In this document: positions 18,895 to 53,510 of the stretch, in pieces
How positions within the stretch are numbered: position 1 is the first letter of the stretch
How the letters are laid out: the number at the start of each line of letters is the position of its first letter
NCBI GenBank assembly: GCA_041665365.1
Contig: JBAYIY010000003.1
Span: 4,260-68,259, forward strand
Direction: 5' to 3'
Length of the DNA: 64,000 nt
Source: Patescibacteria group bacterium
GTDB taxonomy: Bacteria > Patescibacteriota > Patescibacteriia > UBA9570
Translations under genes and position numbers: made by a program
The notes under the pieces: model-generated
Database searches by the model: none
What the model saw: the letters and a program-made list of their open reading frames with translations, nothing else
Told to the model about the DNA's origin: nothing

Positions 18895-18938
18895 CACCTT
18901 CCCAACCTTCCTATTGTAGGAAGGAGTAAGAAAGAAAA
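18895..18938 (+). repeat. member of the nested-hairpin repeat family (CACCTTCCCAACCTTCCTATTGTAGGAAGGAGTAAGAAAGAAAA)
   Basis: Shares the leader CACCT.CCCAACC, a hairpin, and the AGTAAGAAAGAAAA tail with copies at 28091, 43441 and 53382. Confidence 0.45.
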
Positions 18939-18978
18939 TGTAAACGGAATGGTGTGTTGCGGGGGTCCTTCGATAAAC

Positions 18979-19257
18979 TCAGGACGAGCTTTTTTTACTC
19001 AATTCCTTAAGTAGGACAATATTTTGTTGAATTAAGGCCATTTTTTTAGCACGTGACCAGCCTTTTATTTGTATTTCTCGTTTATGAGCCATGTCTCTAG
19101 AAGGATATTGTTCTTGATATACCATTCGTATGATGGTGAATTTTTTCGTAAAAAAAGAATCATGGTTTTTGTGTTCAAGAAGACGTTTTTTTATGTTATT
19201 CGTAATACCAGTATAAAATACAGTGTTATCGCATAACAAAATATATAATGTATACAT
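18979..19257 (-). CDS. GIY-YIG nuclease family protein (standalone, UPF0213-like)
   Basis: ..YILLCDNTVFYTGITNNIKKRLLEH.. and ..IQIKGWSRAKK.. motifs; 92 aa. Confidence 0.7.
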   Translation of the reverse strand: MYTLYILLCDNTVFYTGITNNIKKRLLEHKNHDSFFTKKFTIIRMVYQEQYPSRDMAHKREIQIKGWSRAKKMALIQQNIVLLKELSKKSSS

Positions 19258-19431
19258 AAAAGTACATAAGTTAAATAATGGTATTAATATTGATATTTTT
19301 CGTCCTCAACTAACCAAGGTATACTCCTGAAATGGCAATATCATTTGGCTAATTGGAGATATTTTTCTTCTATCCCTTCGACAAGCTCAGGATTGAAAGT
19401 TCACACTGAGCGAGCGAAGCGAGTCGAAGTG

Positions 19432-19503
19432 TTGCGGGGGCGGGATTCGAACCCGCGACCTGATGGTTATGAGCCACCCGAGCTTCCACTGCTCCACCCC
19501 GCG
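19432..19503 (-). tRNA. tRNA-Met (anticodon CAT), initiator-like (C1:A72 mismatch)
   Basis: Reverse complement CGCGGGGTGGAGCAGTGGAAGCTCGGGTGGCTCATAACCATCAGGTCGCGGGTTCGAATCCCGCCCCCGCAA folds as a cloverleaf and closely resembles E. coli tRNA-fMet; CCA is not encoded. Confidence 0.8.
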
Positions 19504-19517
19504 ATAAATGTGGCACT

Positions 19518-19546: not shown

Positions 19547-19564
19547 TGTGCTATACTACACAAT

Positions 19565-21466
19565 ATGTCGGAGTTTGAAAAACAAATATTTGCTAATGCC
19601 AACCAGGATTACGACGCCGCCTTTGCCAAATTATTTGGGGCGTATTGCCATGATGTTTTTCGAGTCGCTGTGGCAGCCTCATACTATTCAGTTGATCCAG
19701 CTATTGATTTAACGCGGGAAGTGTTTGCTGAGGCCTATAAATATATCCATGCTTTTTCACCACAACAGGGTAGTTTTCATTTACATCTCATGATGGTTTT
19801 GGTGAAAGTTTTACGCAAGCGATCCACCCCTGTCCCGTCCACTCACGAAATCATACCGAAATATTTAAAACACAGATTACGGCCAGATGCCGCTCGACTG
19901 TGGTATGCCATTCAGCATTTACCGTTTGATCTCTGGTTGGTATGTGAACTATTTTATGGTGGACATTTTACACCTCCAGAAATAGCTTATATTTTAAATC
20001 AACCAGTTAGTCAAATACAAACTTTACTAGGCCAAGTACATCATTATTTACGCCAAGTAACGCCGACTTATCATGAACATTTGATAAAAATATATAAACG
20101 GCGCAACCGATTTGCTGTGTTAAAACCAAATCAACAAGTCCGTTTGATGCGTTTGCTCTTAGAACGAAAGCGCATGCGAATGACTTTTATTCAACGCAGT
20201 GTTTGGCAACGCTTAGCTCGACCGAGAAATATATTAATTTTAGCAATAACTGGTGGATTAATCGGTGCAATGATTGTAGCTCTATTATATCGTGAGCCGG
20301 CTCGACAATTATTTACGCAAAATAATTTACCAACTACAAACCAAGTATCCAGTCTATTTACTAGTGTAGTAACAGATCGTCGACCCAGTTTCTTATATAA
20401 GTCAGGTGACTTACCAAAAGTTGAGGTTGTGCGTGAATCATTAGTAACCGTTACTGAAAAATTATATGGTACCAAATATGTTAGTGATCAAACTCAGCCA
20501 ACTGATGCTGATGGTTTAACACCGCAGTTTAGTTTTGCTTTCGCTGAGGATAAATATATCCAGGTTAGTACGGCTTATACTTACATGGTGCCCGAAAAAT
20601 TATCTGAAGATACGTTGCAATATGCGGCCTTAAAACATTTTGTTTCGCTCCCATTGAATCAATTTACTTATGTGAACGGTACATATTATATCCCGGAAGA
20701 TCCTACTCAATTTCGGCCGTTATTTATCTCCTTTAATAATAACGGTGCAATTGATTATCAAATGCGACAAGTCGCGATTTGTGATTTACCCAATTTAACT
20801 GAACCAATTGCTGATACGCAAGCGCAATCATTTGGCTATGAGTTTTTAAAAGCTCATAAATTTATTGAAGCCGATGAAGCTGATTTAGAGATTGAACGAA
20901 TGAGTAGTGAAAATCGTACTGTACCACTCGATGCCTTTTGTAAAAATGGTGATACCAAACCCGTGCAAGATCGTTTATTAGTGTATTTTACTCCACAAAC
21001 CTCATTGAAATTTGGCACAGCAGCGAATGATCAATTACCACTGCGGTTGCCCGGTGTGGCGGTGCAATTACATGGTAAACATATTACTAATCTACGGGTC
21101 GATCCATTATTTTTACTTTTACAATCAGCGGTGCGCGGTTCAGACGTGACCTTGAAACCCCTCAGTCAAGCGATGACAGAGTTACAGAAATATCACTATC
21201 CCAATGAAGCGGAGCTAGGTGAAGCACAGCGTCATGCTACAGTCTTTCCACAATGGAATCATAGTCACGGGTCAGATCGATTTACGCAAATGGCTGTGAG
21301 CACAGTGGCCTTAGAATATGTTTATGATGAACTCAATCACACCATCGAACCTTATTATATTTTTACTGGTATGGGTACTGATGGTAATGGTAAAACTATT
21401 TCAGCACGGTGGTATGTGACAGCTTCTACAACTGATGTTGAATTAAGGGGACCGTACAGGGAATAG
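19565..21466 (+). CDS. membrane-anchored protein with N-terminal sigma-70/ECF-like domain and ~370-aa C-terminal extracytoplasmic domain
   Basis: Sigma region-2/region-4-like segments (..DLTREVFAEAYKYIHAF..; ..LWLVCELFYGGHFTPPEIAYILNQPVSQIQTLLGQ..), then one TM helix (ILILAITGGLIGAMIVALLY) and a large C-terminal domain. Confidence 0.4.
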   Translation: MSEFEKQIFANANQDYDAAFAKLFGAYCHDVFRVAVAASYYSVDPAIDLTREVFAEAYKYIHAFSPQQGSFHLHLMMVLVKVLRKRSTPVPSTHEIIPKYLKHRLRPDAARLWYAIQHLPFDLWLVCELFYGGHFTPPEIAYILNQPVSQIQTLLGQVHHYLRQVTPTYHEHLIKIYKRRNRFAVLKPNQQVRLMRLLLERKRMRMTFIQRSVWQRLARPRNILILAITGGLIGAMIVALLYREPARQLFTQNNLPTTNQVSSLFTSVVTDRRPSFLYKSGDLPKVEVVRESLVTVTEKLYGTKYVSDQTQPTDADGLTPQFSFAFAEDKYIQVSTAYTYMVPEKLSEDTLQYAALKHFVSLPLNQFTYVNGTYYIPEDPTQFRPLFISFNNNGAIDYQMRQVAICDLPNLTEPIADTQAQSFGYEFLKAHKFIEADEADLEIERMSSENRTVPLDAFCKNGDTKPVQDRLLVYFTPQTSLKFGTAANDQLPLRLPGVAVQLHGKHITNLRVDPLFLLLQSAVRGSDVTLKPLSQAMTELQKYHYPNEAELGEAQRHATVFPQWNHSHGSDRFTQMAVSTVALEYVYDELNHTIEPYYIFTGMGTDGNGKTISARWYVTASTTDVELRGPYRE

Positions 21467-21471
21467 AAACA

Positions 21472-21585
21472 TTCCGGAGTTTACCCACTCACTGGAATGT
21501 ACCCCCTAGCCCCCTTGCAGGGGGAACAAGATTTTTTCTCACACTTTTTCTTAGCCCCCTGCAAGGGGGTTGGGGGTAAATTCCG
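21472..21585. mobile_element. MITE-like ~100-bp hairpin-rich repeat, copy A (TIRs TTTACCC(C)C/GGGGGTAAA; internal GCCCCCTTGCAGGGGG and GCCCCCTGCAAGGGGG hairpins)
   Basis: About 90% identical to 48769-48872; fills the gap between two convergent stop codons. Confidence 0.6.
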
Positions 21586-21586
21586 T

Positions 21587-22477
21587 TTAAGAGATCAGTT
21601 CTTTCATTGTCTGTTCCCATCTCTTCTGCAATTCTGGTCTTGGATCATAAGTATGAAATTTCAGAATATCATCTGAGAGTACCACAACGCTCGATTCTAT
21701 CGGCCCACTAAGTTGTTTGAGTTGTTTAGGCATGAACCACAGTTGGAGTTTTTTTAATAATCTTTCCCATAACCACAGGCGATCTGGCAGGTGACTAGAA
21801 CCAACTGTGCGATTAGGGTACATTTGATAGGCTGGTGTATTAGGTAAAACTTGTTTGATCCAATCATATTGTAGATTTTTAAACAAATGTTGTGGGTCAT
21901 AAATGGGTAGGAGTTGCGCTAACCAATAGGCCTCTAATAAATCACCATCGTTGTTTCTCAACTGGTCTAGTTTGGTTAAACCAGTTGGTGTGACATAAAA
22001 ACTTAAACATATAGCATCTTTGGTATGATTTGGTTTAGGACGAACATTAAGTAGTTTGGCTAATAAAGTTGTATAAAATCTGGTTGACCAGATATGATCA
22101 GGAGCAGTGACAATCAGGATATCAACATCACTATTACATTGTACATTGTGATAGGCTAATGTGTTTACTAAAGCCATGGCTCTAACGCCGGGCAACATGG
22201 TTAACCAACCTAATAAGCGGCGGCGTTTATTCCATTTTCGTTCAGATTCTTGGTAACGTTGTTGTCGTATAACACTTAAATTTTCACGCCCCTGAAACAT
22301 AACAAAACCACCGTGTTCTATTAATTGTGGTAGTTGTTTGGCTACAGTCATCGTTTCACTTAATGAAGTTTGAGGTGACCGCCATAAATAGCGATAAATT
22401 TCTGGATAGGTGAGGGGAAAATCAAATGAATCAAAATACACTAGTGTTGCCAGAATCGATTGTTGTAGTGGTGTCAT
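21587..22477 (-). CDS. hypothetical protein, possible nucleotidyltransferase fold
   Basis: Weak: ..NSDVDILIV.. is a Dx(D/E)-like motif preceded by a putative wHTH; assignment is tentative. Confidence 0.3.
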   Translation of the reverse strand: MTPLQQSILATLVYFDSFDFPLTYPEIYRYLWRSPQTSLSETMTVAKQLPQLIEHGGFVMFQGRENLSVIRQQRYQESERKWNKRRRLLGWLTMLPGVRAMALVNTLAYHNVQCNSDVDILIVTAPDHIWSTRFYTTLLAKLLNVRPKPNHTKDAICLSFYVTPTGLTKLDQLRNNDGDLLEAYWLAQLLPIYDPQHLFKNLQYDWIKQVLPNTPAYQMYPNRTVGSSHLPDRLWLWERLLKKLQLWFMPKQLKQLSGPIESSVVVLSDDILKFHTYDPRPELQKRWEQTMKELIS

Positions 22478-25346: not shown

Positions 25347-26528
25347 ATGCGCACTGTTATAGCTCAACAATTAAAGACTTTACCCAAACAACCGGGTGTA
25401 TATTTGTTCAAAAACCGGTTTGGTAATGTTCTGTATGTCGGCAAAGCCAAAGTTTTACAACAACGGGTGCGGTCATATTTTCGCGCACAGACCGACTTAT
25501 CTGATTTAAAGTTATTAATGATTCCACAGATTGATGTGATTGATACCATTCCGGTAGCGACAGAGACGGACGCGATTGTTTTAGAAGACCAACTGATTAA
25601 AGATTATCAGCCACGCTTTAATACTTTAGCCAAAGACGATAAAAGTTTTTTATATATTCATATTACCGCCGAAACTACTCCGCGTATCCTGGCCGTCCGG
25701 CGGCCAGATTTAGCGAGTGGAGGAATTTTTTACGGACCATATCCGTATGCAAAAAATATCCGATCGCTGTTACTTTTAATACATAAAATTTTCCCGGATA
25801 CTCAACAAATCGATCGGGTGATTGCCTTGTTAGAGGGTAAATTGTCTAACTTAATTCCAGACTTACAGACCGCCATGCAGCAGGCAGCGCGCCAAAAACA
25901 CTTTGAACGAGCCGCCCATTTACGCGATCAAATCCGAGCTGTGCAACAATTAAAAATGTTACGCAAAACACCGCGCCAATACTTGTTAGAAAGAATGCAA
26001 ACTACATCTTTGGATATAATGATCGGCCTGAAGGAATTATCACACGCCTTACATTTACCAGAATCTTTGCACCGCATTGAAGTGTATGACATCTCGCACC
26101 ACCAGGGGCGATATATGGTTGGTTCGATGATTGTGTTTATTGATGGCTTACCGGATAAAGCCGAGTATCGTCGATTTAAAATTAAAAGTGTGTTAACCGG
26201 TCAATCGGATGATTTTAAAAGTTTACGGGAAGTGGTGCAGCGCAGATTAAAACGTGATTGGTCATTACCGGATTTGGCGATTATGGACGGCGGTAAGGGG
26301 CAACTTAGTGCGGTGGCACCATTGTGGCAATTAGCCGGAGTGCCAGTAGCAGCTTTAGCCAAAAAACGGGAAGAATTATTTTTACCCGGTATACCTTTGC
26401 CGGTATTATTATCAGCCGGGAGTCAGGGTTTATTTTTAGTACAAAGAATGCGCGATGAAGCGCACCGGTTTGCGATTAGTTATTATCGTTTATTGCACAG
26501 CCGGGCTATGCGCCAGGCAGGGAAATAA
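25347..26528 (+). CDS. uvrC: UvrC-like excinuclease subunit, short form (GIY-YIG plus RNase H-like endonuclease domain; no C-terminal (HhH)2)
   Basis: GIY-YIG motif (GVYLFKNRFGNVLYVGKAKVLQQRVRSYF) and C-terminal UvrC endonuclease motifs; 393 aa; divergent from uvrA. Confidence 0.7.
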   Translation: MRTVIAQQLKTLPKQPGVYLFKNRFGNVLYVGKAKVLQQRVRSYFRAQTDLSDLKLLMIPQIDVIDTIPVATETDAIVLEDQLIKDYQPRFNTLAKDDKSFLYIHITAETTPRILAVRRPDLASGGIFYGPYPYAKNIRSLLLLIHKIFPDTQQIDRVIALLEGKLSNLIPDLQTAMQQAARQKHFERAAHLRDQIRAVQQLKMLRKTPRQYLLERMQTTSLDIMIGLKELSHALHLPESLHRIEVYDISHHQGRYMVGSMIVFIDGLPDKAEYRRFKIKSVLTGQSDDFKSLREVVQRRLKRDWSLPDLAIMDGGKGQLSAVAPLWQLAGVPVAALAKKREELFLPGIPLPVLLSAGSQGLFLVQRMRDEAHRFAISYYRLLHSRAMRQAGK

Positions 26529-27249
26529 TATCCTCAGCGGTCGCGCCGATCATGAGTAATTCAGCATCAGTGACAGTTAATTCTTCAGTACCAGATCGAA
26601 TAACTATACCATTACCAGTGTTAGACCGGAGGATAGTGGGTTGCTTATTTAATAAAGGTTGAACGGCGGGTAAAGCTGATAATTTTGTCATTAAACCAGA
26701 GGCTGGTTTTTGTAGAGGCAATTCATGAATTGCCTCTACAGGTTGTTGAGTGGGTTCAGGTTGTTCAAATGTGGCTAAAGCTGTTTTAGTGGCTTGAACT
26801 TTCTTTTGCAGATCAGTGAGTTGATCGGCATAGCGTTGGTTAATATGATCCATTTCATCCAACAGACCCTGGCGATCTAACCCACCGGCGGAATAATTAT
26901 CAAAAGCTTTTTTCTCATCGATTTTTTGTAATCTAACCACTTCTTTGAGTTGGGTATTTTGTTTTTGTAAAACCTCTTTTAACTGAGCGATCTGTGCGGT
27001 GTTATCTGGCACAGCGGCCGTTTGACGATCCAGTTCAAACAATTCACGTTCTAGTGCCTGTTGGCGGGTTTCACTACCTTGGATTTTAGAAATCCAATCT
27101 TTCATGTTACCCAAAAGAGTATTCTCTTCTTGTTGTAATTTTTCTAGTTCAGCTTGTACCGCACTCCGGCGATCCGGCGTAGCCGAAACTGGTGTCACAG
27201 GTGGAACTGGTTGTAACTTAACGTTGGGGGATAAAGTTATATCTGGCAT
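26506..27249 (-). CDS. hypothetical coiled-coil protein
   Basis: Heptad-rich central region; contains an in-frame palindrome copy encoding AIHELPL. Confidence 0.4.
   Translation of the reverse strand: MPDITLSPNVKLQPVPPVTPVSATPDRRSAVQAELEKLQQEENTLLGNMKDWISKIQGSETRQQALERELFELDRQTAAVPDNTAQIAQLKEVLQKQNTQLKEVVRLQKIDEKKAFDNYSAGGLDRQGLLDEMDHINQRYADQLTDLQKKVQATKTALATFEQPEPTQQPVEAIHELPLQKPASGLMTKLSALPAVQPLLNKQPTILRSNTGNGIVIRSGTEELTVTDAELLMIGATAEDIISLPGA
26711..26740. repeat. 30-bp perfect palindrome TGTAGAGGCAATTCA|TGAATTGCCTCTACA inside a CDS (IHELPL family, diverged copy)
   Basis: Read from the sequence; differs from the 54484 copy by symmetric compensatory changes. Confidence 0.55.
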
Positions 27250-28090: not shown

Positions 28091-28192
28091 AGACCTCTCC
28101 TCCCCAACCCTCCTCTCCTTCGTTAGGAGAGGAGGGAGTAAGAAAGAAAACCCCCTCTCCTTCTGAAGGAGAGGGGCAGGGGGAGAGGTCTC
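28091..28192. repeat. composite nested-hairpin repeat R1 (outer IR GAGACCTCTCC/GGAGAGGTCTC enclosing two hairpins and the AGTAAGAAAGAAAA motif)
   Basis: Related to 53382-53510 (the hairpin CCCCTCTCCTTCTGAAGGAGAGGGG is identical); overlaps the uvrD stop codon. Confidence 0.55.
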
Positions 28193-30230
28193 ATTCCTCT
28201 TGCACCAGTTCTTTGGGTATATCCTTTAAAAATCTCGATGGGGCAGTAATTTGAGTAGCCCCATAGACCGTGCGCTGGGCAGCATAAATAAAATAGGCAC
28301 GGCGCTTAGCACGAGTCAGAGCGACATAACACAAGCGGCGTTCTTCTTCCATTTCAGCGGGTTGAAAAATACTGCGGGCATGGGGAAACAAACCTTCTTC
28401 CATACCACAAATAAACACCGTATCAAATTCTAAACCTTTGGCTGCATGCACTGTCATCATATTAACCGCATTAGAGTCATCATTAACCTCGTCTTGATCT
28501 GACACTAAGGTGATATCTTCCAACATGGCTATAATACCATCGGCTCCTAATTTATTATCAAACCGTTTGGTCACCGATTTTAATTCATCAATATTTTCTA
28601 GTCGGCTCAAGTCTTCCGGTAATTTAGTATTATATTGATCTTTGAAGTGGGTTAGTGACACAATTAGATCTAATGATTCAGATGGCGTTAGGGTAGAAAT
28701 TTTTTGGTTGATGGTTTTCATTAGATTTTGAAATTTCAAAAATGCCTCATGTTGTTGGGTGCGTAGTTCAGGTAACGAATCAGGTGTAATGTCTAAATAG
28801 GTGACACCTAAACTGCGGCACTGGGCTTCAATTTTTTTCCAACTATTCGCACCCAAACTGCGCGCTGGTACATTCACAATTCGTTCCACACTCACCCAAT
28901 CTTGGGGGTTAACCACTGATCTTAAATATGCTACCAAATCTTTAATTTCCCGCCGTTCATAAAATTTAATACCACCAATAATGTGATACGGTATATTATA
29001 GCGTAAAAAAGTTTCTTCTAAGGCACGGGATTGAGCATTAGTGCGATACAGTAACACATATTTACGTAAATCAATTTGATGTAATTGTTTTTGAATCGTG
29101 CGTTGTAAAGAAAATGTTTGGCTGGACATGATTTTATCTAATATTCCCGGGGTTGGTTGGGCATCTTCATCAATATAATGTACCTCATCCTGTTCGGTGA
29201 CTGTTTGGGTGGGATTGAATATTTCTTGAATGATATATTCACCTTCTTGTTTTTCATCGCTCACGGCTTTGATGGTGATTTTGTGGCCGCGCTCATTGTC
29301 TGTCCATAGGGCTTTGTCTTTTTGTTTGACATTATATTTAATAATTTCATTGGCGGCTTCTAGAATATGTTGGGTGGATCGATAATTTTGCTCTAATAAT
29401 ATTACAGTGGGGTTTTTATAATCGGTTTCAAAATCCAAAATATTTTGTAGATTAGCACCTCTCCAACTATAGATGGATTGTGCATCATCCCCGACCACAC
29501 AGATGTTATGATATTTTTCCGCTAGCAGGTGGACTAATTTATACTGCGCCTGATTAGTATCTTGATATTCATCCACTAATATATAATGAAAAGCCTCTTG
29601 GTATTTTTTTAATACTTCAGGGTAGTCAGTAAAAATCCGCACAGTTAAACCAATTAGATCATCAAAGTCTAAAGCATTATGATCTTGTAAGGCCTTTTGG
29701 TAAGTGTTATAAACCCCGGCCGCCGTGCGTTCCATGACATTACCGGCTTGAGTGGAAAAATCGGCTGGGGAGATTAAATCATTTTTAGCTTGAGAAATCA
29801 TGTGTTTCATTAAACCTGGTGCAATCACTTTAGTATCTAGACCTTGATCTTTCATCACTTTTTTTATGAGAGAATCGGTATCTGCTGTGTCATAGATCAC
29901 AAAAGTCTTTTTGTAACCCAATGACTCTATTTCACGTCTAAGAATTTGGACACAGACCGAATGAAACGTTCCCATGATGGGATAATATTTAATCTTACTA
30001 CCCAAGAGTTTTTGTAAACGCGTGCGCATTTCTTTAGCTGCTTTATTGGTAAAGGTAACAGCTAAAATATTTTGTGGGGCGGCTTTTTTCTTGGCAATAA
30101 TATAGGCCATGCGGTGAATCAAAGTTTTAGTTTTACCGGAACCAGCGCCTGCCAAAATTAACACCGGCCCATCCGTGGCTTCCACCGCCGCGCGTTGTTT
30201 ATCATTTAATGAAGCTAACAATTCATGCAT
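28191..30230 (-). CDS. uvrD: ATP-dependent DNA helicase UvrD/PcrA family
   Basis: SF1 helicase motifs (..LILAGAGSGKTKTLIHR.., ..VTFTNKAAKEM..); 679 aa. Confidence 0.9.
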   Translation of the reverse strand: MHELLASLNDKQRAAVEATDGPVLILAGAGSGKTKTLIHRMAYIIAKKKAAPQNILAVTFTNKAAKEMRTRLQKLLGSKIKYYPIMGTFHSVCVQILRREIESLGYKKTFVIYDTADTDSLIKKVMKDQGLDTKVIAPGLMKHMISQAKNDLISPADFSTQAGNVMERTAAGVYNTYQKALQDHNALDFDDLIGLTVRIFTDYPEVLKKYQEAFHYILVDEYQDTNQAQYKLVHLLAEKYHNICVVGDDAQSIYSWRGANLQNILDFETDYKNPTVILLEQNYRSTQHILEAANEIIKYNVKQKDKALWTDNERGHKITIKAVSDEKQEGEYIIQEIFNPTQTVTEQDEVHYIDEDAQPTPGILDKIMSSQTFSLQRTIQKQLHQIDLRKYVLLYRTNAQSRALEETFLRYNIPYHIIGGIKFYERREIKDLVAYLRSVVNPQDWVSVERIVNVPARSLGANSWKKIEAQCRSLGVTYLDITPDSLPELRTQQHEAFLKFQNLMKTINQKISTLTPSESLDLIVSLTHFKDQYNTKLPEDLSRLENIDELKSVTKRFDNKLGADGIIAMLEDITLVSDQDEVNDDSNAVNMMTVHAAKGLEFDTVFICGMEEGLFPHARSIFQPAEMEEERRLCYVALTRAKRRAYFIYAAQRTVYGATQITAPSRFLKDIPKELVQEE

Positions 30231-35486: not shown

Positions 35487-35501
35487 AAAACACGAACCGT
35501 T

Positions 35502-35539
35502 GTCCGGTAGAGACATGCCATAGCATGTCTCTACCGGAC
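35502..35539. terminator. bidirectional terminator hairpin (17-bp perfect stem GTCCGGTAGAGACATGC / GCATGTCTCTACCGGAC)
   Basis: Lies between the convergent rnj and serpin genes; followed by an A-rich tract. Confidence 0.65.
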
Positions 35540-35547
35540 AAAAACAT

Positions 35548-42185: not shown

Positions 42186-43464
42186 AATCCCGACCATCCT
42201 AATTTTTGGGTTAGGCGGTTATGTGCATGGCAGTGGTACTGCCGCGGCTCTGTATTTTGCTAAACAGGGCTATCATGTGATTGTGACCGATCAAAAATCT
42301 GCCGATCTATTACATCAAGGCACAATAAAAAAATTAAATAAATACCCCAATGTTGAGTTAGTGTTGGGAAAACATCGTAAAACCGATATTAGACGAGCTG
42401 ATTTGATAGTTCGTAATCCGGGTGTGTCGGATCAATCACCCTTTATGCAGTATGCCCACCAATTAAAAAAACCGATTACAAATGATGTGGGTATTTTCTT
42501 GGATGAATTAAAAGAGCAGTTCGGGCCAGATGGTGTGACGGTGGTTGGTATCACCGGAACGCGCGGTAAAAGTACCACTACGGCTTTAATTGGCCACATG
42601 CTACAAGCACGGGTGGGCGGAAACATTGGTTTGTCACCCTTAACTTTTCTCAATAAAATCAAAGCTAATGATGTAGTAGTGTTAGAGCTATCTAGTTGGT
42701 TATTACGTGATTTACATCTACCTAGTTTGTCTGTCGCAGTAGTAACAAACATGTTGCGCGATCACATGAATTATTACAAAAACATGTCATTGTATCAGGC
42801 CGATAAAGAACGCATCTTTTTAGGCCAAGCACCCTACCATCATGCTGTAGTAAATGCGACTGATAGTAGAGTTCGTCAGATGGCAAAAAAAACTAAAGCG
42901 CAATTACATTGGTTTAATAAAACCAGTATTAAGGGAGTACAATTATTAGGTGAACATAATCAATTTAATATTGGGGCGGCTTGGCAAGTAGGGAAAGTAT
43001 TTGGTTTAACCGATAAACAATTAGTTGCAGCTGTTAAATCATTTAAACCATTAGCGAATCGTTTAGAAGTAATTCGCGTACATAACGGTCGGACATTTAT
43101 CAACGATACTACAGCCACAACTCCAGATGCGACTATTGCAGCACTGTTATCATTTAAGAAAAAAGTGATTTTAATTGCTGGTGGCAACTCTAAACAGTTA
43201 TCATTAACAGCCCTGCGTAAATTAATCCCTCAACATGTAAAAAAACTGATTTTATTACCCGGTAATGCCAATCATGATTTTCCTCCTGGTATTACTGTGT
43301 CTACCATGGCGCAAGCCGTGCGTACTGCCTGGCAGTTATCCAAACCCGGCGATATTATTTTATTATCGCCGGGTGTGACCTGGTTACCCTTAATGAATGA
43401 ATTTAAACGCGGTGAAGAGTTTGTTAAGGAGGTAAAAAAACACCTCCCCAACCCTCCTATATAG
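42157..43464 (+). CDS. murD: UDP-N-acetylmuramoylalanine--D-glutamate ligase
   Basis: Mur ligase P-loop (GITGTRGKSTTTALIGHML) and N-terminal Rossmann-like region; start uncertain (overlaps trpS). Confidence 0.8.
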   Translation: MSKVKSASTKIPTILIFGLGGYVHGSGTAAALYFAKQGYHVIVTDQKSADLLHQGTIKKLNKYPNVELVLGKHRKTDIRRADLIVRNPGVSDQSPFMQYAHQLKKPITNDVGIFLDELKEQFGPDGVTVVGITGTRGKSTTTALIGHMLQARVGGNIGLSPLTFLNKIKANDVVVLELSSWLLRDLHLPSLSVAVVTNMLRDHMNYYKNMSLYQADKERIFLGQAPYHHAVVNATDSRVRQMAKKTKAQLHWFNKTSIKGVQLLGEHNQFNIGAAWQVGKVFGLTDKQLVAAVKSFKPLANRLEVIRVHNGRTFINDTTATTPDATIAALLSFKKKVILIAGGNSKQLSLTALRKLIPQHVKKLILLPGNANHDFPPGITVSTMAQAVRTAWQLSKPGDIILLSPGVTWLPLMNEFKRGEEFVKEVKKHLPNPPI

Positions 43465-43512
43465 GAGGGAGTAAGAAAAAATCTTAACCCCTTCCTAAAT
43501 AGGAAGGTGTAT
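43441..43512 (+). repeat. nested-hairpin repeat family member (CACCTCCCCAACCCTCCTATATAGGAGGGAGTAAGAAAAAA plus a second hairpin CCTTCCTAAATAGGAAGG)
   Basis: Shares leader, hairpin and AGTAAGAAA tail with the other copies; its 5' part encodes the last 8 residues and the stop codon of murD. Confidence 0.5.
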
Positions 43513-47144: not shown

Positions 47145-48237
47145 ATTGTTGTATCAAGCTACCCATGGCCCAAGCCATTGCCACTACCATCACGACACAA
47201 CTTAATAACCAACCAAAGAAACCAAACCAACTCATCACGCCAGTTACTAGATATAACATACTAAAACCTAACATAAACTGTCCGAAAGAAGATTTGGCTT
47301 GTGGTAACAGCAGATAACCTAGACCAGAACCAGCTAATACTTTTGCCCACATCAGTACAACCAATAAAACTAAACCACTCATGGTGGCTAATGGTAAGCC
47401 AACTAAGGTTATAGCTAAGGTAAGTAAAACAGCCGGTGCTAGAACTAATATGCCAATACCATATAGTAGACTTTTGCCCGGCGCTGTTTTCATGCGCTGT
47501 ATAACGGTGTTGCTATTTTTCGGGAATAATTTAAGAAGCACAATTCCTAATATTACATAACCCAACCAACCAAGCATGAGTTTAATAACCTGAAAGACGG
47601 TGACCAAGGGTTTTTTTACATCTGGTTTTGGTGCGGTTTGGTTATTATTTTGTTCTTCAGGTTTAGTGTGATGCACTTCACCTAATATGCTGGCCGTGTT
47701 GCCTGTGTTTAATTCATTGGCTGTGACAGTGACATCACCGTTCACAGTGCCGTTAACATCCAGGGTGTTAGATTGCACAGTAACGTCTTGTCCAACATGG
47801 GCAGTTTTAGCAATGGTAACTTGATTACCAAATACAACTAAATTTCGTCCGACTGACTGTTTTATGGTAACAGTGCTACCAGCGGCTCTAAGACTTCCAT
47901 TAACATCGCCATCAACTATCACTGTTCCACCAGCTACAAATAAATCTCCTTCAATTGTGCCAGTTACCGTCACGGTATTACCAGCGACGAAAACATCATT
48001 CAAATAATGTTTATCCAAAACCACATCTTGGTTAGCATACAAGTACATGTGTTCAACCGTGTCTAAGTTTTCTTCTTTCACTGCACCAGTTGTGTTTTTA
48101 ACTTGTTCATTAATTGGGTCAGTTTCAGCTGCCAACATAGCATCGGCTGGAGTGAGCGTAAATAAAACAATGCCTCCTAATACAAGTGCAATAAAAGCAC
48201 TGATTAATGGGATAGATTGGGTCACTTTAAATTTCAT
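47128..48237 (-). CDS. membrane protein with beta-helix-like V/G/T-rich repeats (DUF4097/bactofilin-like) and a C-terminal multi-TM domain
   Basis: ..FVAGNTVTVTGTIEGDLFVAGGTVIVDGDVNGSLRAAGSTVTI.. repeats followed by about 5 TM helices. Confidence 0.35.
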   Translation of the reverse strand: MKFKVTQSIPLISAFIALVLGGIVLFTLTPADAMLAAETDPINEQVKNTTGAVKEENLDTVEHMYLYANQDVVLDKHYLNDVFVAGNTVTVTGTIEGDLFVAGGTVIVDGDVNGSLRAAGSTVTIKQSVGRNLVVFGNQVTIAKTAHVGQDVTVQSNTLDVNGTVNGDVTVTANELNTGNTASILGEVHHTKPEEQNNNQTAPKPDVKKPLVTVFQVIKLMLGWLGYVILGIVLLKLFPKNSNTVIQRMKTAPGKSLLYGIGILVLAPAVLLTLAITLVGLPLATMSGLVLLVVLMWAKVLAGSGLGYLLLPQAKSSFGQFMLGFSMLYLVTGVMSWFGFFGWLLSCVVMVVAMAWAMGSLIQQYGRNL

Positions 48238-48278
48238 ACTAGTGTTAGTTTATATGAATCAAGTGGGCGTACTATACA

Positions 48279-48350
48279 CCAGTGAGGGGGTATTGGCAAC
48301 CTGGAATTTATCTCTTTAGTCTTACCCCCAACCCCCTTGCAGGGGGCTTA
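48279..48350. repeat. partial/rearranged copy C of the MITE-like element (one arm CTTACCCCCAACCCCCTTGCAGGGGGCTTAG plus an inverted left-end fragment CCAGTGAGGGGGTA)
   Basis: Matches the reverse complement of the right arm of copies A and B. Confidence 0.45.
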
Positions 48351-48386
48351 GATTAATGATAAAGTTCTTTTAAGAAGCGCCGCCTT

Positions 48387-48800
48387 GTGAGGGGGCGTTT
48401 TATGTACTTAAAAGAACCTACTCAAAATCAGATTAAATTACAACATAAACTACAATTGTTAGCACGTAAGTTACGAAATAATCCTACTCAAGCTGAAGTG
48501 GTGTTATGGAACAGATTAAAAGAAAAACAACTTGGTTGTAAGTTCAGACAGCAATATCCACTCTTTCAATTCATTGTAGATTTTTATTGTTCATCTCATC
48601 GATTAATCATTGAGGTCGATGGTTTAATCCATGAACAACAACGTGATTATGATCAGTTACGTGATCAGATAATGATGCGACATGGTTACTCAGTGATGAG
48701 ATTCGCGAATGCTGAAATCATGAATGATCTAGATAAGGTAATCGACAAGATTAAGGAGAAACTAAATGGATTTACCCCCTCACTGGAATTTACCCCCTAG
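48387..48800 (+). CDS. DUF559 domain protein (Vsr-like PD-(D/E)xK endonuclease fold)
   Basis: ..LARKLRNNPTQAEVVLWNRLKEKQLGCKFRQQYPLFQFIVDFYCSSHRLIIEVDG..HEQQRDYD..RD..GY.VMRF matches the DUF559 signature; the last 10 codons and the stop lie inside the MITE-like element. Confidence 0.75.
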   Translation: MRGRFMYLKEPTQNQIKLQHKLQLLARKLRNNPTQAEVVLWNRLKEKQLGCKFRQQYPLFQFIVDFYCSSHRLIIEVDGLIHEQQRDYDQLRDQIMMRHGYSVMRFANAEIMNDLDKVIDKIKEKLNGFTPSLEFTP

Positions 48801-48872
48801 CCCCCTTGCAGGGGGAATAAGATATTTAAACCACTTTTTCTTAGCCCCCTGCAAGGGGGTTGGGGGTAAAGT
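48769..48872. mobile_element. MITE-like ~100-bp hairpin-rich repeat, copy B
   Basis: About 90% identical to copy A; supplies the 3' end of the DUF559 ORF and lies between convergent stop codons. Confidence 0.6.
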
Positions 48873-48876
48873 TAGA

Positions 48877-49533
48877 TTATTGGCAAACCGTCACGATATT
48901 CCTATTACCCTCACCTAACTCATTTTTTATAACCCGTAAACCGGCGTGTTTACACAACTCAGCCAATTCTGTAAAGGTGAATTTATGATAGTAACGCTTG
49001 GCTAATACCTGGCCCTGACCGTTTTTCCACGGGACTAAATAATCACCCGGATCATAACCGGCACCAGCCACCGGGTAACTCTCTGGAATATTCCAGTTAA
49101 GCATAAATAAAACTCCACTTGGTTTTAAAACTCTGGTCATCTCCTGAAGGGCGGCTTGGCGATAAACGTCTGAAGGAATGTGCTGTAAACTAGCCACAGC
49201 TGCTACTACATCAAAAGATTGATCTGGATAAGGTAATTTCAGCATCGAACCATAATCAAAGTGATATAGCGGATGTAGTTTTTTAGCATGATCCAACAAT
49301 TGACGAGACAGGTCTAAACCGGTATAGTCAACCGCCGGAATGGCAGCAATTAGCCGGCCATTACCACAACCTATATCCAACAGTTTAATTTCCCCTACCA
49401 TCACATTTATGATATCAACCAGGTATTTAAATTCATCCCATTGGTACGAGCGGGTATGAGAAAATTGATCAGCAATATTATTATAATCCTGCTCTAATTG
49501 TTTAATAATTTGATCAGCGAATGAAACAAGCAT
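48877..49533 (-). CDS. class I SAM-dependent methyltransferase
   Basis: Motif I LDIGCGNGRL; ..SFDVVAAVASLQHI..; ..VLKPSGVLFM. Confidence 0.75.
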   Translation of the reverse strand: MLVSFADQIIKQLEQDYNNIADQFSHTRSYQWDEFKYLVDIINVMVGEIKLLDIGCGNGRLIAAIPAVDYTGLDLSRQLLDHAKKLHPLYHFDYGSMLKLPYPDQSFDVVAAVASLQHIPSDVYRQAALQEMTRVLKPSGVLFMLNWNIPESYPVAGAGYDPGDYLVPWKNGQGQVLAKRYYHKFTFTELAELCKHAGLRVIKNELGEGNRNIVTVCQ

Positions 49534-51062: not shown

Positions 51063-51079
51063 TGTGCTAGAATAGGCAG

Positions 51080-52327
51080 ATGTTAGAACATTTACGCCAC
51101 CAAGACCCGGAGCTGGCCGGTTATATCACCAGTGAATTAGATCGACAGCGTCATAATTTAGAGTTAATTCCCTCGGAGAATTTTGTCTCATTGTCGGTGT
51201 TAGAAGCGTTAGGGAGTATTTGTACTAATAAATATTCAGAAGGCTATCCCGGTAAACGTTATTACGGTGGTAATCAATTTATCGACAAAATTGAGCAATT
51301 AGCCATTGATCGAGCCAAGCAGATTTTTGGCGCCGAGCATGTGAACGTGCAGCCATTATCTGGTGCACCGGCTAACTTAGCGGTTTATACAGCTTTGCTA
51401 CAACCAGGCGATACAGTGTTGGGGATGGATCTTACGCATGGTGGCCACCTTACACACGGGCACCCGGTGACCTTCATGGCTAAAGTATATAATTTCATTC
51501 GTTATAAAACTAAACCGGATGGTTTAATTGATTTCGATCAAGTGCGTGCCTTAGCCTTAGAACATAAACCAAAATTAATTCTGGCCGGTTTTTCAGCCTA
51601 TTCACGTGAGTTGGAGTATGAAAAATTCCAAGCTATTGCCGATGAAGTTGGTGCTATGACCATGGCCGATATTGCACACATTGCCGGTTTGATTGCGGCC
51701 GGTGAATTAAAAAACCCGGTACCGATTTTTGATGTTGTCACTACTACCACACATAAAACATTACGCGGTCCACGCGGTGGTATGATTATGTGTAAAGCCA
51801 AACATGCTGCGGCTATAAACAAAGCGGTGTTTCCTGGTGTGCAAGGTGGCCCGCATGAACATCAAATTGCGGCCCTGGCTGTGGCGCTTAAAGAAGCGAT
51901 GACACCAGAGTTTAAACAATATGCTAAGCAAATTCGTTTAAATGCGCAGGTGTTATGTACTGAACTTAAAGCCGGAGGTTTAACTATTATGCATGGTGGT
52001 AAAACAGATAATCATTTGCTTGTGGCTGATGTTACTCCCTTAGGTATTACCGGTAAAATCGCGCAGACGGTATTGGATGAAGTAAACATCACGTTAAACA
52101 TGAACACCATTCCAGACGATCCACGTGGGCCAATGGATCCATCCGGTATTCGTTTAGGTTCGCCACCAATGACAACGCGCGGTATGAAAGAACCAGAGAT
52201 GAAAATCATCGCTGAGTTGATTCTAAAGACATTGAAGAATCATAATAACGAGACAATTAAACAAGAGGTTAAACAAGCCGTGATTGCGTTAACCGATAAG
52301 TTTCCGCTGTACCCGGAGTTAGGTTAA
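51080..52327 (+). CDS. glyA: serine hydroxymethyltransferase
   Basis: ..LELIPSENFVS..; a PLP-site T(T)THKTLRGPRGG-type region; full-length SHMT similarity. Confidence 0.95.
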   Translation: MLEHLRHQDPELAGYITSELDRQRHNLELIPSENFVSLSVLEALGSICTNKYSEGYPGKRYYGGNQFIDKIEQLAIDRAKQIFGAEHVNVQPLSGAPANLAVYTALLQPGDTVLGMDLTHGGHLTHGHPVTFMAKVYNFIRYKTKPDGLIDFDQVRALALEHKPKLILAGFSAYSRELEYEKFQAIADEVGAMTMADIAHIAGLIAAGELKNPVPIFDVVTTTTHKTLRGPRGGMIMCKAKHAAAINKAVFPGVQGGPHEHQIAALAVALKEAMTPEFKQYAKQIRLNAQVLCTELKAGGLTIMHGGKTDNHLLVADVTPLGITGKIAQTVLDEVNITLNMNTIPDDPRGPMDPSGIRLGSPPMTTRGMKEPEMKIIAELILKTLKNHNNETIKQEVKQAVIALTDKFPLYPELG

Positions 52328-52328
52328 T

Positions 52329-53384
52329 ATGAGTTTACAAATTGGTATTGTTGGCTTGCCGAACGTGGGGAAATCCACTTTGTTTAAGGCGCTGACAAAA
52401 ATTCAGGTTGATGCCAGTAATTATCCATTTTGCACCATTGACCCGAATGTGGGTGTAGTGGCTGTGCCGGATGAACGCTTACAAAAATTAAGTGATTTAT
52501 CGCACTCGGCGAAAATGGTTCCGGCGGTGATTGAGTTTGTGGATATTGCTGGGTTAGTGGCTGGTGCCTCAAAAGGGGAAGGGTTAGGCAATAAATTTTT
52601 AGCCAACATTCGTGAAGTTGATGCCATCATTCAAGTAGTGCGCGAGTTTACTGACAATAATGTGGTGCATGTCCATGGTAAGGTTGATCCTAAAACTGAT
52701 ATTGAGGTAATCAATTTAGAATTGATTATGGCGGATTTACAACAAATCCAAAATGCGACGGAAAAGTTAGGTAAAAAAGTGCGGGCGCAAGATAAAGGAG
52801 CGGTCGCAGAATTGGCGGTTTTGGAAAAAATTAAAACCGCTCTTGAAGCCGGCCAATTAGCCAACACAGTGGCATTAGATGCAGAGAAAGAAGAACCATT
52901 GATTAAACACCATAGTTTATTAACACGAAAACCAATTTTGTATGTGGTTAATGTTGATGAAGCGGTGCAGGCCAAAATTATCATTCCCGGAGCGGTGACA
53001 ATATCGGCGAAAATAGAATCGGAATTAGTGGAGCTTTCGGCTGATGATGCTAAAATGATGATGGATGAATTAGGTATGACAGAAACCGGTTTGGAAAAAT
53101 TAATTACCGCGTGTTATAAATTATTAGATTTACAATCATTCTTGACCACTGGTGAAGATGAAACCAGAGCTTGGACAATTAAACGCGGCACCAAAGCCCC
53201 CCAAGCCGCCGGTGTGATTCATTCTGATTTTGAACAAAAATTTATTCGCGCTGAAGTGATTAATTGGCAAAAATTACTCGAAGCCGGTGGTTATCCAACT
53301 GCGCGTGATAAAGGTTGGCTACGCATGGAAGGCAAAAATTATGTGATGCAGGATGGGGATGTGGTGGAGTTTCATCATGCTTAG
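52329..53384 (+). CDS. ychF: redox-regulated ATPase YchF (Obg-like GTPase family)
   Basis: [15 protein letters not shown]-loop and a TGS-like C-terminal domain. Confidence 0.9.
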
Positions 53385-53510
53385 ACCTCTCCCCTAACCC
53401 CTCTCCTTCTGAAGGAGAGGGGAATAAGAAAAATAATGTTGAATCTATTTTTGTGTTCTTACTCCCTACTCTCCTGATGAAGGAGAGGAGGGCTGGGGAG
53501 GAGAGGTCTA
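53382..53510. repeat. composite nested-hairpin repeat R2 (outer IR TAGACCTCTCC/GGAGAGGTCTA; shares hairpin CCCCTCTCCTTCTGAAGGAGAGGGG with R1)
   Basis: The outer inverted repeats contain the TAG stops of both convergent genes (ychF and the methyltransferase). Confidence 0.55.

Follow-up and report, generated by a model that had tools for sequence, protein, structure and literature searches.

Twelve short repeat units were identified at seven sites in the window, the term used here for the entire 64,000-nucleotide stretch of Patescibacteria DNA that was analysed, and five of the seven sites are inverted pairs, referred to as doublets (Table 1). All 12 perfect pyrimidine-armed hairpins of the window belong to this family, compared with 2.05±1.3 such hairpins in shuffled sequences. 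The dispersed, structured and REP-like character put forward in the preliminary description was upheld, and its four sites are all present at the positions given there; the family is larger, with seven sites rather than four, and includes a poly-C subfamily that had been overlooked (21480-21582, 48324-48352, 48792-48867). That description had recognised neither the mirror nature of the leader nor the family as BoxC / PIT / triplex-motif repeats, nor the placement of a DUF559 nuclease gene of the window within such a pair. The two composites, R1 (U2 and U3) and R2 (U6 and U7), retain their earlier names. A further family of palindromes, marked by a GTAG motif, is also present in the window.

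Table 1. Repeat units of the window and the gene features adjoining them
Feature	Positions	Strand	Composition and setting
U1, single unit	18896-18938	+	third strand ACCTTCC, linker CAA, hairpin 18906-18924, tail AGTAAGAAAGAAAA; mirror 7/7; between tRNA-Met (-) and the 5' end of the Wzy_C gene (-)
U8/U9, poly-C doublet	21480-21586		75% identical to 48771-48873; extended terminal inverted repeat GGAATnTACCCCC; spans the interval from convergent gene 19565-21466 (+) to convergent gene 21587-22477 (-)
U8	21501-21531	+	ACCCCC-TAG-CCCCCT…AGGGGG-AACAAGA
U9	21544-21577	-	
U2, 11/12-bp-arm unit of R1	28091-28150	+	AGACCTCTCCTCCC-CAA-CCCTCCTCTCCT-loop-AGGAGAGGAGGG-AGTAAGAAAGAAAA; mirror 12/12
U3, 9-bp-arm unit of R1	28151-28192	-	hairpin 28152-28176, then GTTTTCTTTCTT on the - strand; third strand overlaps the uvrD TGA
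uvrD TGA	28191-28193	-	
U4	43442-43481	+	ACCTCCC-CAA-CCCTCCT-ATAT-AGGAGGG-AGTAAGAAAAAA; codes for MurD residues HLPNPPI and the stop (43462-43464)
U5, degenerate partner unit	43482-43512	-	hairpin 43490-43507, tail GGTTAAGATTTTTT; no third strand; mirror 5/7; resembles U1 lacking the linker and a single copy of CCTTCC; its end lies 8 nt from the convergent racemase stop
U10, single poly-C unit	48324-48352	+	DUF559 start codon about 50 nt further downstream
DUF559 gene (PF04480), Vsr-like PD-(D/E)XK nuclease, 132 aa	48402-48800	+	TAG stop is the linker of U11
U11/U12, poly-C doublet	48792-48867		directly 3' of DUF559; convergent methyltransferase stop (48877) about 10 nt beyond its end
U11	48792-48822	+	
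U12	48834-48867	-	
D1 repeat of the U11/U12 region	to 48873		ends 3 nt from the methyltransferase stop (48877)
U6, 9-bp-arm unit of R2	53383-53436	+	AGACCTCTCCCC-TAA-CCCCTCTCC…GGAGAGGGG-AATAAGAAAAATAA; first two bases overlapped by the ychF TAG (53382-53384)
U7, 11-bp-arm unit of R2	53445-53510	-	one stem mismatch; third strand CCTCTCCTCCC a perfect mirror; linker CAG; outer end overlapped by the methyltransferase TAG (53508-53510, - strand)

Architecture and pairing of the units

The unit plan is a hairpin, a 3-nt linker and a third strand. On the purine strand the order is pyrimidine arm, loop, purine arm, linker (2-3 nt across the units) and a G/A/T third strand mirroring the purine arm, with a first loop of 3-7 nt and arms of 5-12 nt (CCCCTCTCC, CCCTCCTCTCC, CCCTCC, CCTTCC and CCCCC in the window). 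The leader reads as the 5' arm in mirror image, not as a direct copy of it (for example CCTCTCCTCCC-CAA-CCCTCCTCTCC), and this mirror leader is the feature that identifies the repeat family. A scripted mirror test was passed by 10 of the 12 window units; U7 was matched by eye (11/11) and U5 has no third strand. Across 239 asymmetric hairpins from the window and the 80 DUF559 loci described below, the third strand was a perfect mirror in 156 and a perfect direct copy in 33, and the mirror was the better fit in 147 cases versus 14 for the direct copy. Across phyla, changes in the arm are accompanied by changes in the mirror strand, and the T-to-A substitutions in the leader are those tolerated by the purine triplex motif (rule as in PMC4666352). 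The third strand could fold back antiparallel onto the hairpin through G·G-C, A·A-T and T·A-T triads, those of the class II purine motif, and such a fold might have a role in vivo.

The arms are of low complexity, and short 5-nt-arm hairpins with a third strand also arise in shuffled sequence (0.82 per window), as would be expected if the similarity among sites were a chance effect of CT/GA composition. However, the leader CACCTYCCCAACCYTCC (up to three mismatches) has four matches in the window versus 0.22 expected from dinucleotide shuffles and the tail GGAGKRAGTAAGAAA six occurrences versus 0.34, a 25-nt inner hairpin is present in exactly two copies versus none expected from shuffles, and the collinearity of R1, R2 and the L099 doublet extends beyond 110 nt. 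The covariation of mirror strand and arm also speaks against a chance origin, which is refuted by the shuffle counts, this collinearity and the mirror-strand statistics and to which a negligible probability is assigned.

The composites are nested hairpins, as previously described. The outer inverted repeats that had been attributed to them are present, but are better read as the third strands, or leaders, of two units that meet at their tails: each composite has a second half that is itself a unit, lying on the other strand. One heterotypic doublet is represented twice, by R1 and R2, which face in opposite directions; in both, as in the L099 doublet, a 9-bp-arm unit is paired with an 11-bp-arm unit, and the three can be aligned along their length (R1 on the - strand, R2 on the + strand) with spacers of 15, 46 and 40 nt, respectively. 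The strand AGACCTCTCC occurs four times in the form of two inverted pairs, and terminal inverted repeats are present (AGACCTCTCC… / GGAATnTACCCCC). Two differing units joined tail to tail with their third strands outward form a REPIN-like composite of about 100-130 bp, and this doublet would be the unit that is copied.

Judged by architecture, the repeats are the Patescibacteria version of the BoxC / PIT / triplex-motif (TM) repeats, because they share the plan of hairpin, linker and mirror third strand; the BoxC / PIT elements of E. coli were reportedly described by Hoyne et al. in 2000. BoxC/PIT/TM repeats have been catalogued since the 1990s, in thousands of copies and hundreds of genomes, and to our knowledge they have been given no function, origin or partner protein in about 25 years.

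Insertion at gene ends and the terminator question

The outer repeats of R2 carry the stop codons of both ychF and the convergent methyltransferase gene, and the overlap of the R1 outer repeat with the uvrD TGA amounts to 2 nt, in agreement with the preliminary description. The unit at 43441 does encode the MurD tail, as the last seven codons plus the stop where eight residues had been reported. Similarity of this MurD to solved structures ends at residue 427 of 435, and the C-terminus …VKxLR* common to more than 40 MurD relatives is missing from it. The murD-racemase gap of syntenic relatives is 31-35 nt long and has no repeat unit, a plain hairpin lying there in L171, and a unit with the same AGACCTCTCC strand is carried by a relative at another location. 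Because the gap in relatives is empty of repeats and their MurD proteins end in …VKxLR*, the doublet at this junction is, by sequence comparison, identified as a lineage-specific insertion, and the earlier view of the elements as insertions is thereby sustained. No consistent target-site duplication, which together with terminal inverted repeats marks transposase-dependent MITEs, was visible at R1, R2 or the L099 doublet, there being few insertions with known empty sites. The doublets would have entered short gaps at the 3' ends of genes, taking the place of ordinary terminator hairpins and, in some cases, of the final codons, and it is probably for this reason that they now supply stop codons.

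Each of the five doublets lies directly against the 3' end of one or more genes, and a doublet occupies four of the eight convergent junctions of the window. These positions could also arise if the doublets were mainly bidirectional terminators or 3'-end mRNA stabilisers selected at convergent ends, their similarity following from that function, and they had earlier been termed mobile terminators. The presence of a plain hairpin in a relative where the window has the murD-racemase doublet would suit such a function, as would U3, downstream of uvrD, which is the best terminator-like site in 18-30 kb. Folding energies, a check proposed in the preliminary description, were likewise in line with it in that the RNA hairpins of the composites are very stable (-59 to -76 kcal/mol for the doublets, z -4.8 to -7.9), but none of them is followed by a U-run; a U-tract follows only one of the 10 doublet hairpins (U3, the only terminator-like context in the family) and no outer stem, so that a terminator role is not generally supported. 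Furthermore, other convergent junctions of the same genome have canonical A-tract / hairpin / T-tract terminators, the single units U1 and U10 lie in 5' regions, and termination does not need a conserved mirror third strand. PIT elements were inactive as promoters or terminators in E. coli tests, according to the citation of these in PMC4666352. Selection for termination or stabilisation is consequently considered an unlikely explanation of the family, and a terminator role acquired by exaptation after insertion is possible and compatible with the insertion of doublets at gene ends.

The DUF559 gene and its inverted units

The DUF559 gene of the window matches PF04480 with E = 6e-35 (119.8 bits, cut-off 20.6). 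In an alignment of 55 sequences the catalytic columns D60, E71 and G74 are invariant and D73 and H77 nearly so, and comparison with PDB 3hrl and, for the profile, with the homing endonuclease I-Bth0305I (PDB 3r3p) gave 3e-16 and 4e-7, respectively. Eighty DUF559 loci from diverse phyla were assembled, some counts being made on 74 of them. Within 150 nt of DUF559 there were 5.65 hairpins per kb; far from the gene, the same loci had 0.32 per kb outside ORFs and 0.16 per kb within ORFs. Hairpins were found on both sides of the gene in 56 of 74 loci and no nearby unit in seven of 74; a (+) unit lies upstream and a (-) unit downstream in 44 of 80, the two often being identical, loop included. Layouts (+ gene -; doublet gene doublet; + gene + -) and gene orientation vary among loci, and many DUF559 proteins have extensions that are translated units (e.g. 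PPNPLKGE, SPLPxGEG). Reciprocally, a pattern built on the units alone retrieved 523 kb of metagenome DNA with one DUF559 gene, located exactly between two matches; its protein is 54% identical to that of the window and its flanks match U6 and U7. DUF559 is thus associated with inverted units in the geometry described, a link that is new insofar as it was not found in the literature searched; a 2015 survey found no association of triplex-motif repeats with mobile elements (PMC4666352).

The window gene is flanked by the poly-C subfamily, and the 78 kb examined contained no DUF559 gene with CT-type units (R1, R2, U1, U4) as its flanks. Arm sequences common to distant and DUF559-adjacent units (40 of 57) are in moderate excess over permutations (27.2±5.2, maximum 42). 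Most true unit loci have no DUF559 nearby, which fits non-autonomous copies and equally fits independence.

The reading we prefer, at a probability of roughly 0.6, is that triplex-motif doublets have been inserted at gene ends, with a DUF559 element proposed as their partner. Two forms of one element are proposed because inverted units enclose stand-alone DUF559 genes here and in many phyla: the autonomous form would be unit, DUF559 gene and inverted unit, and the gene-less doublets would be non-autonomous derivatives or substrates. The association itself is observed, and the doublets are best read as putative non-autonomous partners by a mechanism that we infer. A unit folded in DNA that is transiently single-stranded would serve as the recognition and nicking target of the nuclease, and subsequent repair or replication restart would lead to copying, deletion or rearrangement of the element; DUF559 may in this manner bind or cut the units and drive their spread. 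Inverted doublets at gene ends are equally a property of classical REP/REPIN elements moved by RAYT (a Y1 / IS200-like transposase), and the GTAG palindromes of the window could be taken in the same sense. However, the window ORFs checked yielded no transposase, RAYT or Y1_Tnp domain, the units carry no REP GTAG head and have a mirror third strand in its place, and the gene inside the inverted pair is DUF559 at the 44 loci mentioned above, making movement by RAYT highly improbable.

Further evidence was drawn from E. coli, where TMECO #9 sits 168 nt downstream of the DUF559 gene ycjD with its third strand outward and homology with ycjD-less strains resumes about 15 nt beyond it (PMC12817139). 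The ycjD segment is polymorphic for presence or absence; TMECO-like places number 11-27 in ycjD+ and 1-15 in ycjD- strains of a spread sample, a difference confounded by phylogroup, and TMECOs persist without ycjD (10-15 in O157:H7). Five inverted pairs occur in E. coli, each of a type A and a type B unit, like the window pairing. Folding of the isolated strand as a triplex in vitro is known for the E. coli units only, and a stable triplex was undetected by in vivo DMS footprinting in E. coli (PMC4666352). The ycjD polymorphism, the retention of TMECOs by ycjD-less lineages, the constant position of DUF559 in doublet spacers and a profile akin to that of a characterised Vsr-like homing endonuclease (PMC3239194, PMC2677866) would also agree with a free-standing homing-type endonuclease gene that is a parasite of doublets already in place and inserts into their spacers, the units spreading otherwise. 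Efficient homing should, however, have filled more of the empty doublets (genes to empty doublets are 1 to 23 in K-12 and 1 to 5 in the window), and homing offers no dispersal mechanism for the doublets; the models are not told apart by the frequent, conserved heterotypic difference between flanking units, which empty doublets show too. We regard homing as rather unlikely. A broader extension of the partnership between DUF559 and the doublets, tentatively held and rated somewhat short of even odds, is that stand-alone DUF559 proteins may be the cognate enzymes of BoxC / PIT / TM repeats across bacteria, in a REPIN-RAYT-like system based on PD-(D/E)XK nicking of a folded hairpin plus third strand, the gene with two inverted units being autonomous and gene-less doublets (R1, R2, E. 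coli TMECO pairs) non-autonomous.

DUF559 is small and widespread and sits inside an inverted pair in the window, in loci of other phyla and in the metagenome locus, and it adjoins TMECO #9 in E. coli. A functional link would provide a role for DUF559, account for the spread of the repeats and the instability of their loci, and constitute a natural case of a protein reading a triplex-capable DNA fold; were DUF559 the cognate enzyme, the origin of the repeats and the reported 'genomic instability' would be explained. DUF559 is a testable enzyme candidate for the repeats, and E. coli K-12 (ycjD, 23 TMECOs) is a direct test system. For annotation, the repeats explain why many predicted proteins have unusual P/L/S/G/E-rich extensions at their N and C termini and account for gene ends rewritten by repeat insertion in the streamlined genomes of Patescibacteria.

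Comparison with known systems

Rickettsia palindromic elements (RPE) and Neisseria Correia elements are gene-end or in-frame MITEs that supply codons and stops, and they resemble the window repeats in that small inserted palindromes are incorporated into ORFs or gene ends. Their sequence family is, however, unrelated, the partners of Correia and RPE, where known, differ, and we know of no report of a third-strand triplex for these elements. Vsr-like (EDxHD) homing endonucleases of the I-Bth0305I type are similarly small selfish nuclease genes with presence/absence polymorphism; they occupy phage group I introns or fractured genes, with coding sequence as their target (PMC3239194, PMC2677866), whereas DUF559 is here free-standing in bacterial chromosomes and framed by triplex-motif repeats. 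The likeness to REP/REPIN-RAYT systems is one of architecture only and consists of inverted doublets of short structured units, many gene-less at gene ends, and a small nuclease gene flanked by inverted units; unlike those systems, the enzyme is a Vsr-like PD-(D/E)XK nuclease (DUF559) and not a Y1 HUH transposase, and a mirror third strand, known here from sequence, takes the place of the GTAG guide.

The closest comparison is with the BoxC / PIT / TMECO repeats (Holder 2015, PMC4666352), which like the window units have a pyrimidine arm, loop, purine arm, 3-nt linker and mirror purine-rich third strand, and are dispersed and intergenic with many inverted pairs of two unit types. Short loops (3-6 nt, then about 3 nt) and stems of about 6-15 nt define the BoxC / PIT / TM kind, and both are found in the window units. 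In contrast to E. coli, the host is a Patescibacteria MAG of 41% GC, the arms are of 5-12 bp and include a pure poly-C subfamily, the units have a conserved A-rich tail ((A/G)TAAGA(A)n), the doublets adjoin stop codons or overlap them and lengthen MurD, and the DUF559 link, present here, is unmentioned in PMC4666352. The published TMECO consensus, CCCTCNCCC-N3-6-GGGNGAGGG-N3-GGGNGAGGG (PMC4666352), has the same plan and is not matched by the window arms, which belong to another subfamily; TMECO is a proteobacterial subfamily and not the definition of the BoxC / PIT / TM kind. For some copies the likeness in sequence is close, U6 (GACCTCTCCCC-TAA-CCCCTCTCC) being near-identical to the TMECO reverse complement (CCCTCACCC-TAA-CCCTCTCCC).

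The repeat unit and its mirror-image third strand

The four repeat sites of the preliminary description were present in the window as described. In a shuffle comparison, the leader motif was found four times (0.22 expected) and the tail motif six times (0.34 expected), the 25-nt hairpin CCCCTCTCCTTCTGAAGGAGAGGGG occurred in exactly two copies (0 expected) and AGACCTCTCC formed two inverted pairs; with motif counts this far above chance expectation, the similarity between sites exceeds what low-complexity composition would give. Mechanical scanning of the 64 kb (41% GC) returned 12 perfect hairpins in which the 5' arm is pyrimidine-only, all 12 of them family members, against 2.05±1.3 in dinucleotide shuffles. 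A poly-C subfamily, with the plan TACCCCC-TAG/AA-CCCCC-TTGCA-GGGGG-NTAAGA, had been overlooked. At every composite site two units, one per strand, are placed tail to tail with their leaders outward, an arrangement that accounts both for the nested fold and for the "outer inverted repeats" reported earlier. Composites fold with -15.7 to -37.7 kcal/mol as DNA and, in keeping with the hairpins first proposed, with -33 to -76 kcal/mol as RNA (z -4.8 to -7.9). One composite element is present twice, as R1 and, in the opposite orientation, as R2: the minus strand of R1 is collinear with the plus strand of R2, each comprising a unit with 9-bp arms, a spacer (15 nt in R1, 46 nt in R2) and a unit with 11-bp arms. 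An Rfam search at gathering thresholds returned tRNA-Met only and no match at the repeats, extension of the source contig by 14 kb added no units, and no target-site duplications were found at R1, R2 or the metagenome locus L099 (see below).

Repeat units and neighbouring features, in window positions
Feature	Positions	Remarks
U1, repeat unit	18896-18938	
Poly-C doublet, solo	21480-21582	
R1, CT-type composite (U2, U3)	28091-28192	U2 mirror: CCTCTCCTCCC-CAA-CCCTCCTCTCC
U4/U5 doublet, MurD end	43442-43512	U4 mirror: CCTCCC-CAA-CCCTCC
U10, poly-C unit	48324-48352	
U11/U12, poly-C doublet	48792-48867	
R2, CT-type composite (U6, U7)	53382-53510	U6 mirror: CCTCTCCCC-TAA-CCCCTCTCC
DUF559 ORF	48402-48800	
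Bactofilin-like/UbiE-type junction	48237-48877	
Bidirectional intrinsic terminators	15231-15294, 35486-35548	
Second palindromic family, CGTAGGGGTAATTCATGAATTACCCCTACG	10465-10494, 26711-26740, 54490-54519	
ORFs hosting CGTAGGGGTAATTCATGAATTACCCCTACG	26506-27249 (-), 53508-54611 (-)	second is a methyltransferase, copy in N-terminal part
67-nt direct repeats, 94% identical	10532-10598, 11206-11272	terminator-like hairpin GAAAGCGCTGAAAAGGGCGCTTTTT in each

The leader is the 5' arm reversed and not complemented, that is, its mirror image; pairing with the loop-closing T-A pair explains the conserved "A" of CAC-, GAC- and TAC-. Of 239 asymmetric hairpins from the window and 80 unrelated loci, 156 have a perfect mirror strand within 1-6 nt and only 33 a perfect direct copy; compared head to head, the mirror was better in 147 and the direct copy in 14. 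A leader copied directly from the 5' arm was ruled out, and with that reading fell alternative Watson-Crick pairing, an attenuator-like switch and CACCTCC anti-SD mimicry. The mirror strand covaries with widely differing arms (e.g. CCCTTTCC, CCTCCCCC, CCCCTTCTCC and CCCCTTCCCCC), which establishes a triplex-motif architecture at the level of sequence, and arm T positions are frequently matched by A in the leader. On the purine strand the order is hairpin, linker and a G/A/T strand antiparallel to the purine arm, the plan predicted for a purine-motif intrastrand triplex with G·GC, A·AT and T·AT triads. Unit U5 (43482-43512) resembles U1 (18889-18924), with GAATACACCTTCC in common, minus the linker and one copy of CCTTCC; since CCTTCC mirrors itself, the third strand is at the same time a direct repeat of the arm, and its deletion by slippage may be possible.

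Other repeats were observed in the window. The CGTAGGGGTAATTCATGAATTACCCCTACG family has a GTAG head as in classical REPs, with one copy intergenic and two inside long ORFs; by analogy, the latter could be in-frame palindrome insertions like the Rickettsia RPEs. The 67-nt direct repeats lie on either side of a Gp49-like (HigB-type) gene and an HTH gene, an arrangement with the look of a toxin-antitoxin-like cassette.

Insertion at gene ends and the question of termination

The stop codons previously assigned to the repeats were correct. Homology of the window MurD to solved MurD structures stops at residue 427 of 435, and its C-terminus reads …FVKEVKK-HLPNPPI*, whereas more than 40 relatives with 56-71% identity, the closest of which carry the label Kerfeldbacteria, all terminate …FVxxVKxLR*. 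The source is a Patescibacteria MAG, as the NCBI protein names also state. Relatives lacking the insertion, suggested earlier as a comparison, were available at this gene: two syntenic relatives have a common order of tRNA synthetase, murD, convergent racemase and iPGM, with murD-racemase gaps of 35 and 31 nt that contain a unit in neither and a plain hairpin in one. Given the divergent C-terminus and these short, unit-free gaps, the 72-bp murD doublet is an insertion specific to this lineage, which replaced the final codons together with the hairpin formerly present between the genes. A unit with the AGACCTCTCC strand also occurs in one relative, but at another location; the family is therefore common to both lineages, and the positions are not. 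Doublets are the unit of copying, and they insert at gene ends.

The repeats had been proposed to be mobile terminators, of which insertion at gene ends was upheld and a general terminator role was not. Doublets may have taken over termination in some cases, as they are held by four of the eight convergent junctions and one took the place of a hairpin present in a relative. However, the idea is weak as a general account: a U-tract was found at U3 only, composite stems are followed by no U-run, single units are located upstream of genes, and the other convergent junctions with a gap carry canonical A-tract/hairpin/T-tract terminators instead. Termination is not the defining property of the family. 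The two gapped convergent junctions without a triplex-motif doublet hold bidirectional intrinsic terminators of textbook form (A-tract, GC hairpin, T-tract); canonical terminators are in use in this organism.

A DUF559 nuclease gene associated with the units

The ORF between U10 (+) and U11 (+)/U12 (-) encodes a DUF559/Vsr-like nuclease (PF04480, E = 6e-35) that matches PDB 3hrl at 3e-16; the family profile matches the homing endonuclease I-Bth0305I (PDB 3r3p) at 4e-7. The U11 linker is the stop codon of this gene, and the solo doublet has 75% identity to the doublet 3' of it. A role as a defence gene was not adopted, PADLOC giving only weak matches (E ~1e-3 to 6e-5) to methyl-directed restriction enzyme and DpdF models. 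A variable hot spot lies between the bactofilin-like and UbiE-type methyltransferase genes: the DUF559 element occupies this junction in the window, and 3.9 kb of small unannotated ORFs do so in a syntenic relative (L174, 16400-20300). Among named relatives, the one nearest to the window DUF559 protein (58% identity) is from a Xenococcaceae cyanobacterium (L003), where the gene is flanked by direct repeats of ~155 nt (1820-1975 and 2397-2552) and not by a simple inverted pair; each repeat contains a TACCCCCAAATTTGGGGGTTACG hairpin and a unit-like CCCCCC-AG-CCCC…GGGGG whose loop is large and structured.

An exhaustive representative search placed the DUF559 family at no fewer than 23,949 representative clusters, and many of its proteins carry N- or C-terminal extensions like translated units (PPNPLKGE, SPLPxGEG, GRGVGGEG). 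A 13-sequence DUF559 alignment, a 55-sequence one being too diverse, was used to retrieve 80 loci from species-representative genomes of Bacteroidota, Chloroflexota, Cyanobacteria, Patescibacteria, Gammaproteobacteria, Ignavibacteria and others. In these loci the density of pyrimidine-armed hairpins was 5.65 per kb up to 150 nt from the gene, against 0.32 per kb of non-ORF and 0.16 per kb of ORF DNA far from it. They flank the gene on both sides in 56 of 74 loci, most commonly (44/80) with the upstream unit on (+), the downstream one on (-) and both third strands facing outward; the paired units are often identical, including the loop and a few bases further, and form a conserved heterotypic pair in other loci. 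Distant units matched the type of the gene-adjacent ones in 40 of 57 cases (27.2±5.2 permuted), a modest excess.

Reciprocally, a pattern built from the unit alone yielded 79 metagenome stretches (523 kb in total), about half with true units and roughly half chance matches without a hairpin. Contigs of the window organism itself were not among these stretches, although the organism is present in a JGI sample. Exactly one DUF559 gene was found in the 523 kb, between two inverted matches (L099); its protein has 54% identity to that of the window, the units beside it match U6 and U2/U7, and the doublet they form is collinear with both R1 and R2. L099 as a filled version of the ychF junction was rejected, the upstream 351-aa gene being unrelated to YchF. 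A recurrent "collapsed" form was also seen in metagenome loci (L096, L104, L140, L145, L147, L157, L161, L162), comprising a single hairpin with a pyrimidine third strand 5' and, on the 3' side, a small GC hairpin (e.g. TGCCCGCAAGAGC) followed by GGGGTGAGGT; some contigs have tandem copies of this form ~155 nt apart.

The association of the units with a predicted catalytically intact Vsr-like nuclease gene is tight, oriented and cross-phylum, and constitutes the valuable lead of the analysis; a literature search, most subscription journals lying outside it, found no paper linking DUF559 to these repeats. The nuclease would recognise the unit once folded, in DNA that is extruded or briefly single-stranded, and nick it; repair or restart would then copy, delete or rearrange the element, and gene-less doublets would be non-autonomous derivatives. 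As the main alternative, DUF559 would be a parasite of homing type that exploits doublets already in place; the ratio of about one gene per many empty doublets speaks against this, though not decisively, and favours a reading like that of RAYTs (REP-associated transposases). A REP/RAYT system proper was rejected, as a Y1 transposase is absent from the window ORFs checked.

Comparison with E. coli ycjD and the BoxC/PIT/TMECO family

In E. coli K-12, copy #9 of the triplex motif TMECO lies 168 nt downstream of the DUF559 gene ycjD, third strand outward. Of 5426 complete genomes, 3375 carry the ycjD segment and the others have eefRABCD in its place (PMC12817139); between the two states, homology restarts ~15 nt beyond TMECO #9. 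In a spread sample, confounded by phylogroup, TMECO-like places numbered 11-27 in ycjD+ and 1-15 in ycjD- genomes, the latter including B2 strains with 1-3 and O157:H7 with 12; the contrast fits a DUF559-repeat link and, with phylogroup as a confounder, is suggestive. Salmonella is reported to lack TMECO, and Enterobacter asburiae LF7a and Microcystis NIES-843 are rich in triplex motifs. The ycjD 3' coding end, ~45 nt (GGAGACGGTGCTGGAGAATATTC…CTGAACCG), is duplicated ~110 nt downstream, between ycjD and TMECO #9 (L085, NC_000913.3 1351204-1351470), and a degenerate hairpin, CCCTCTCCC-TGAAA-GAGCGAGGGGG, overlaps the ycjD stop.

Judged by their sequence plan, the window repeats belong to the published BoxC/PIT/TMECO family, with the TMECO consensus CCCTCNCCC-N3-6-GGGNGAGGG-N3-GGGNGAGGG (PMC4666352). 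E. coli K-12 has 23 copies, intergenic without exception, and five inverted pairs each join a type A and a type B unit; the triplex was demonstrated in vitro, not in vivo, neither promoter nor terminator activity was detected, and the published survey, with 3610 copies across 262 proteobacterial genomes and related motifs abundant in Cyanobacteria, did not find an association with mobile elements (PMC4666352). The repeats first described here are thus real and of a kind already known, though unrecognised as such. The window repeats make up a new subfamily, found in a new phylum and distinguished by its A-rich tail and very tight packing against genes, and what is new is this variant in Patescibacteria that rewrites gene ends.
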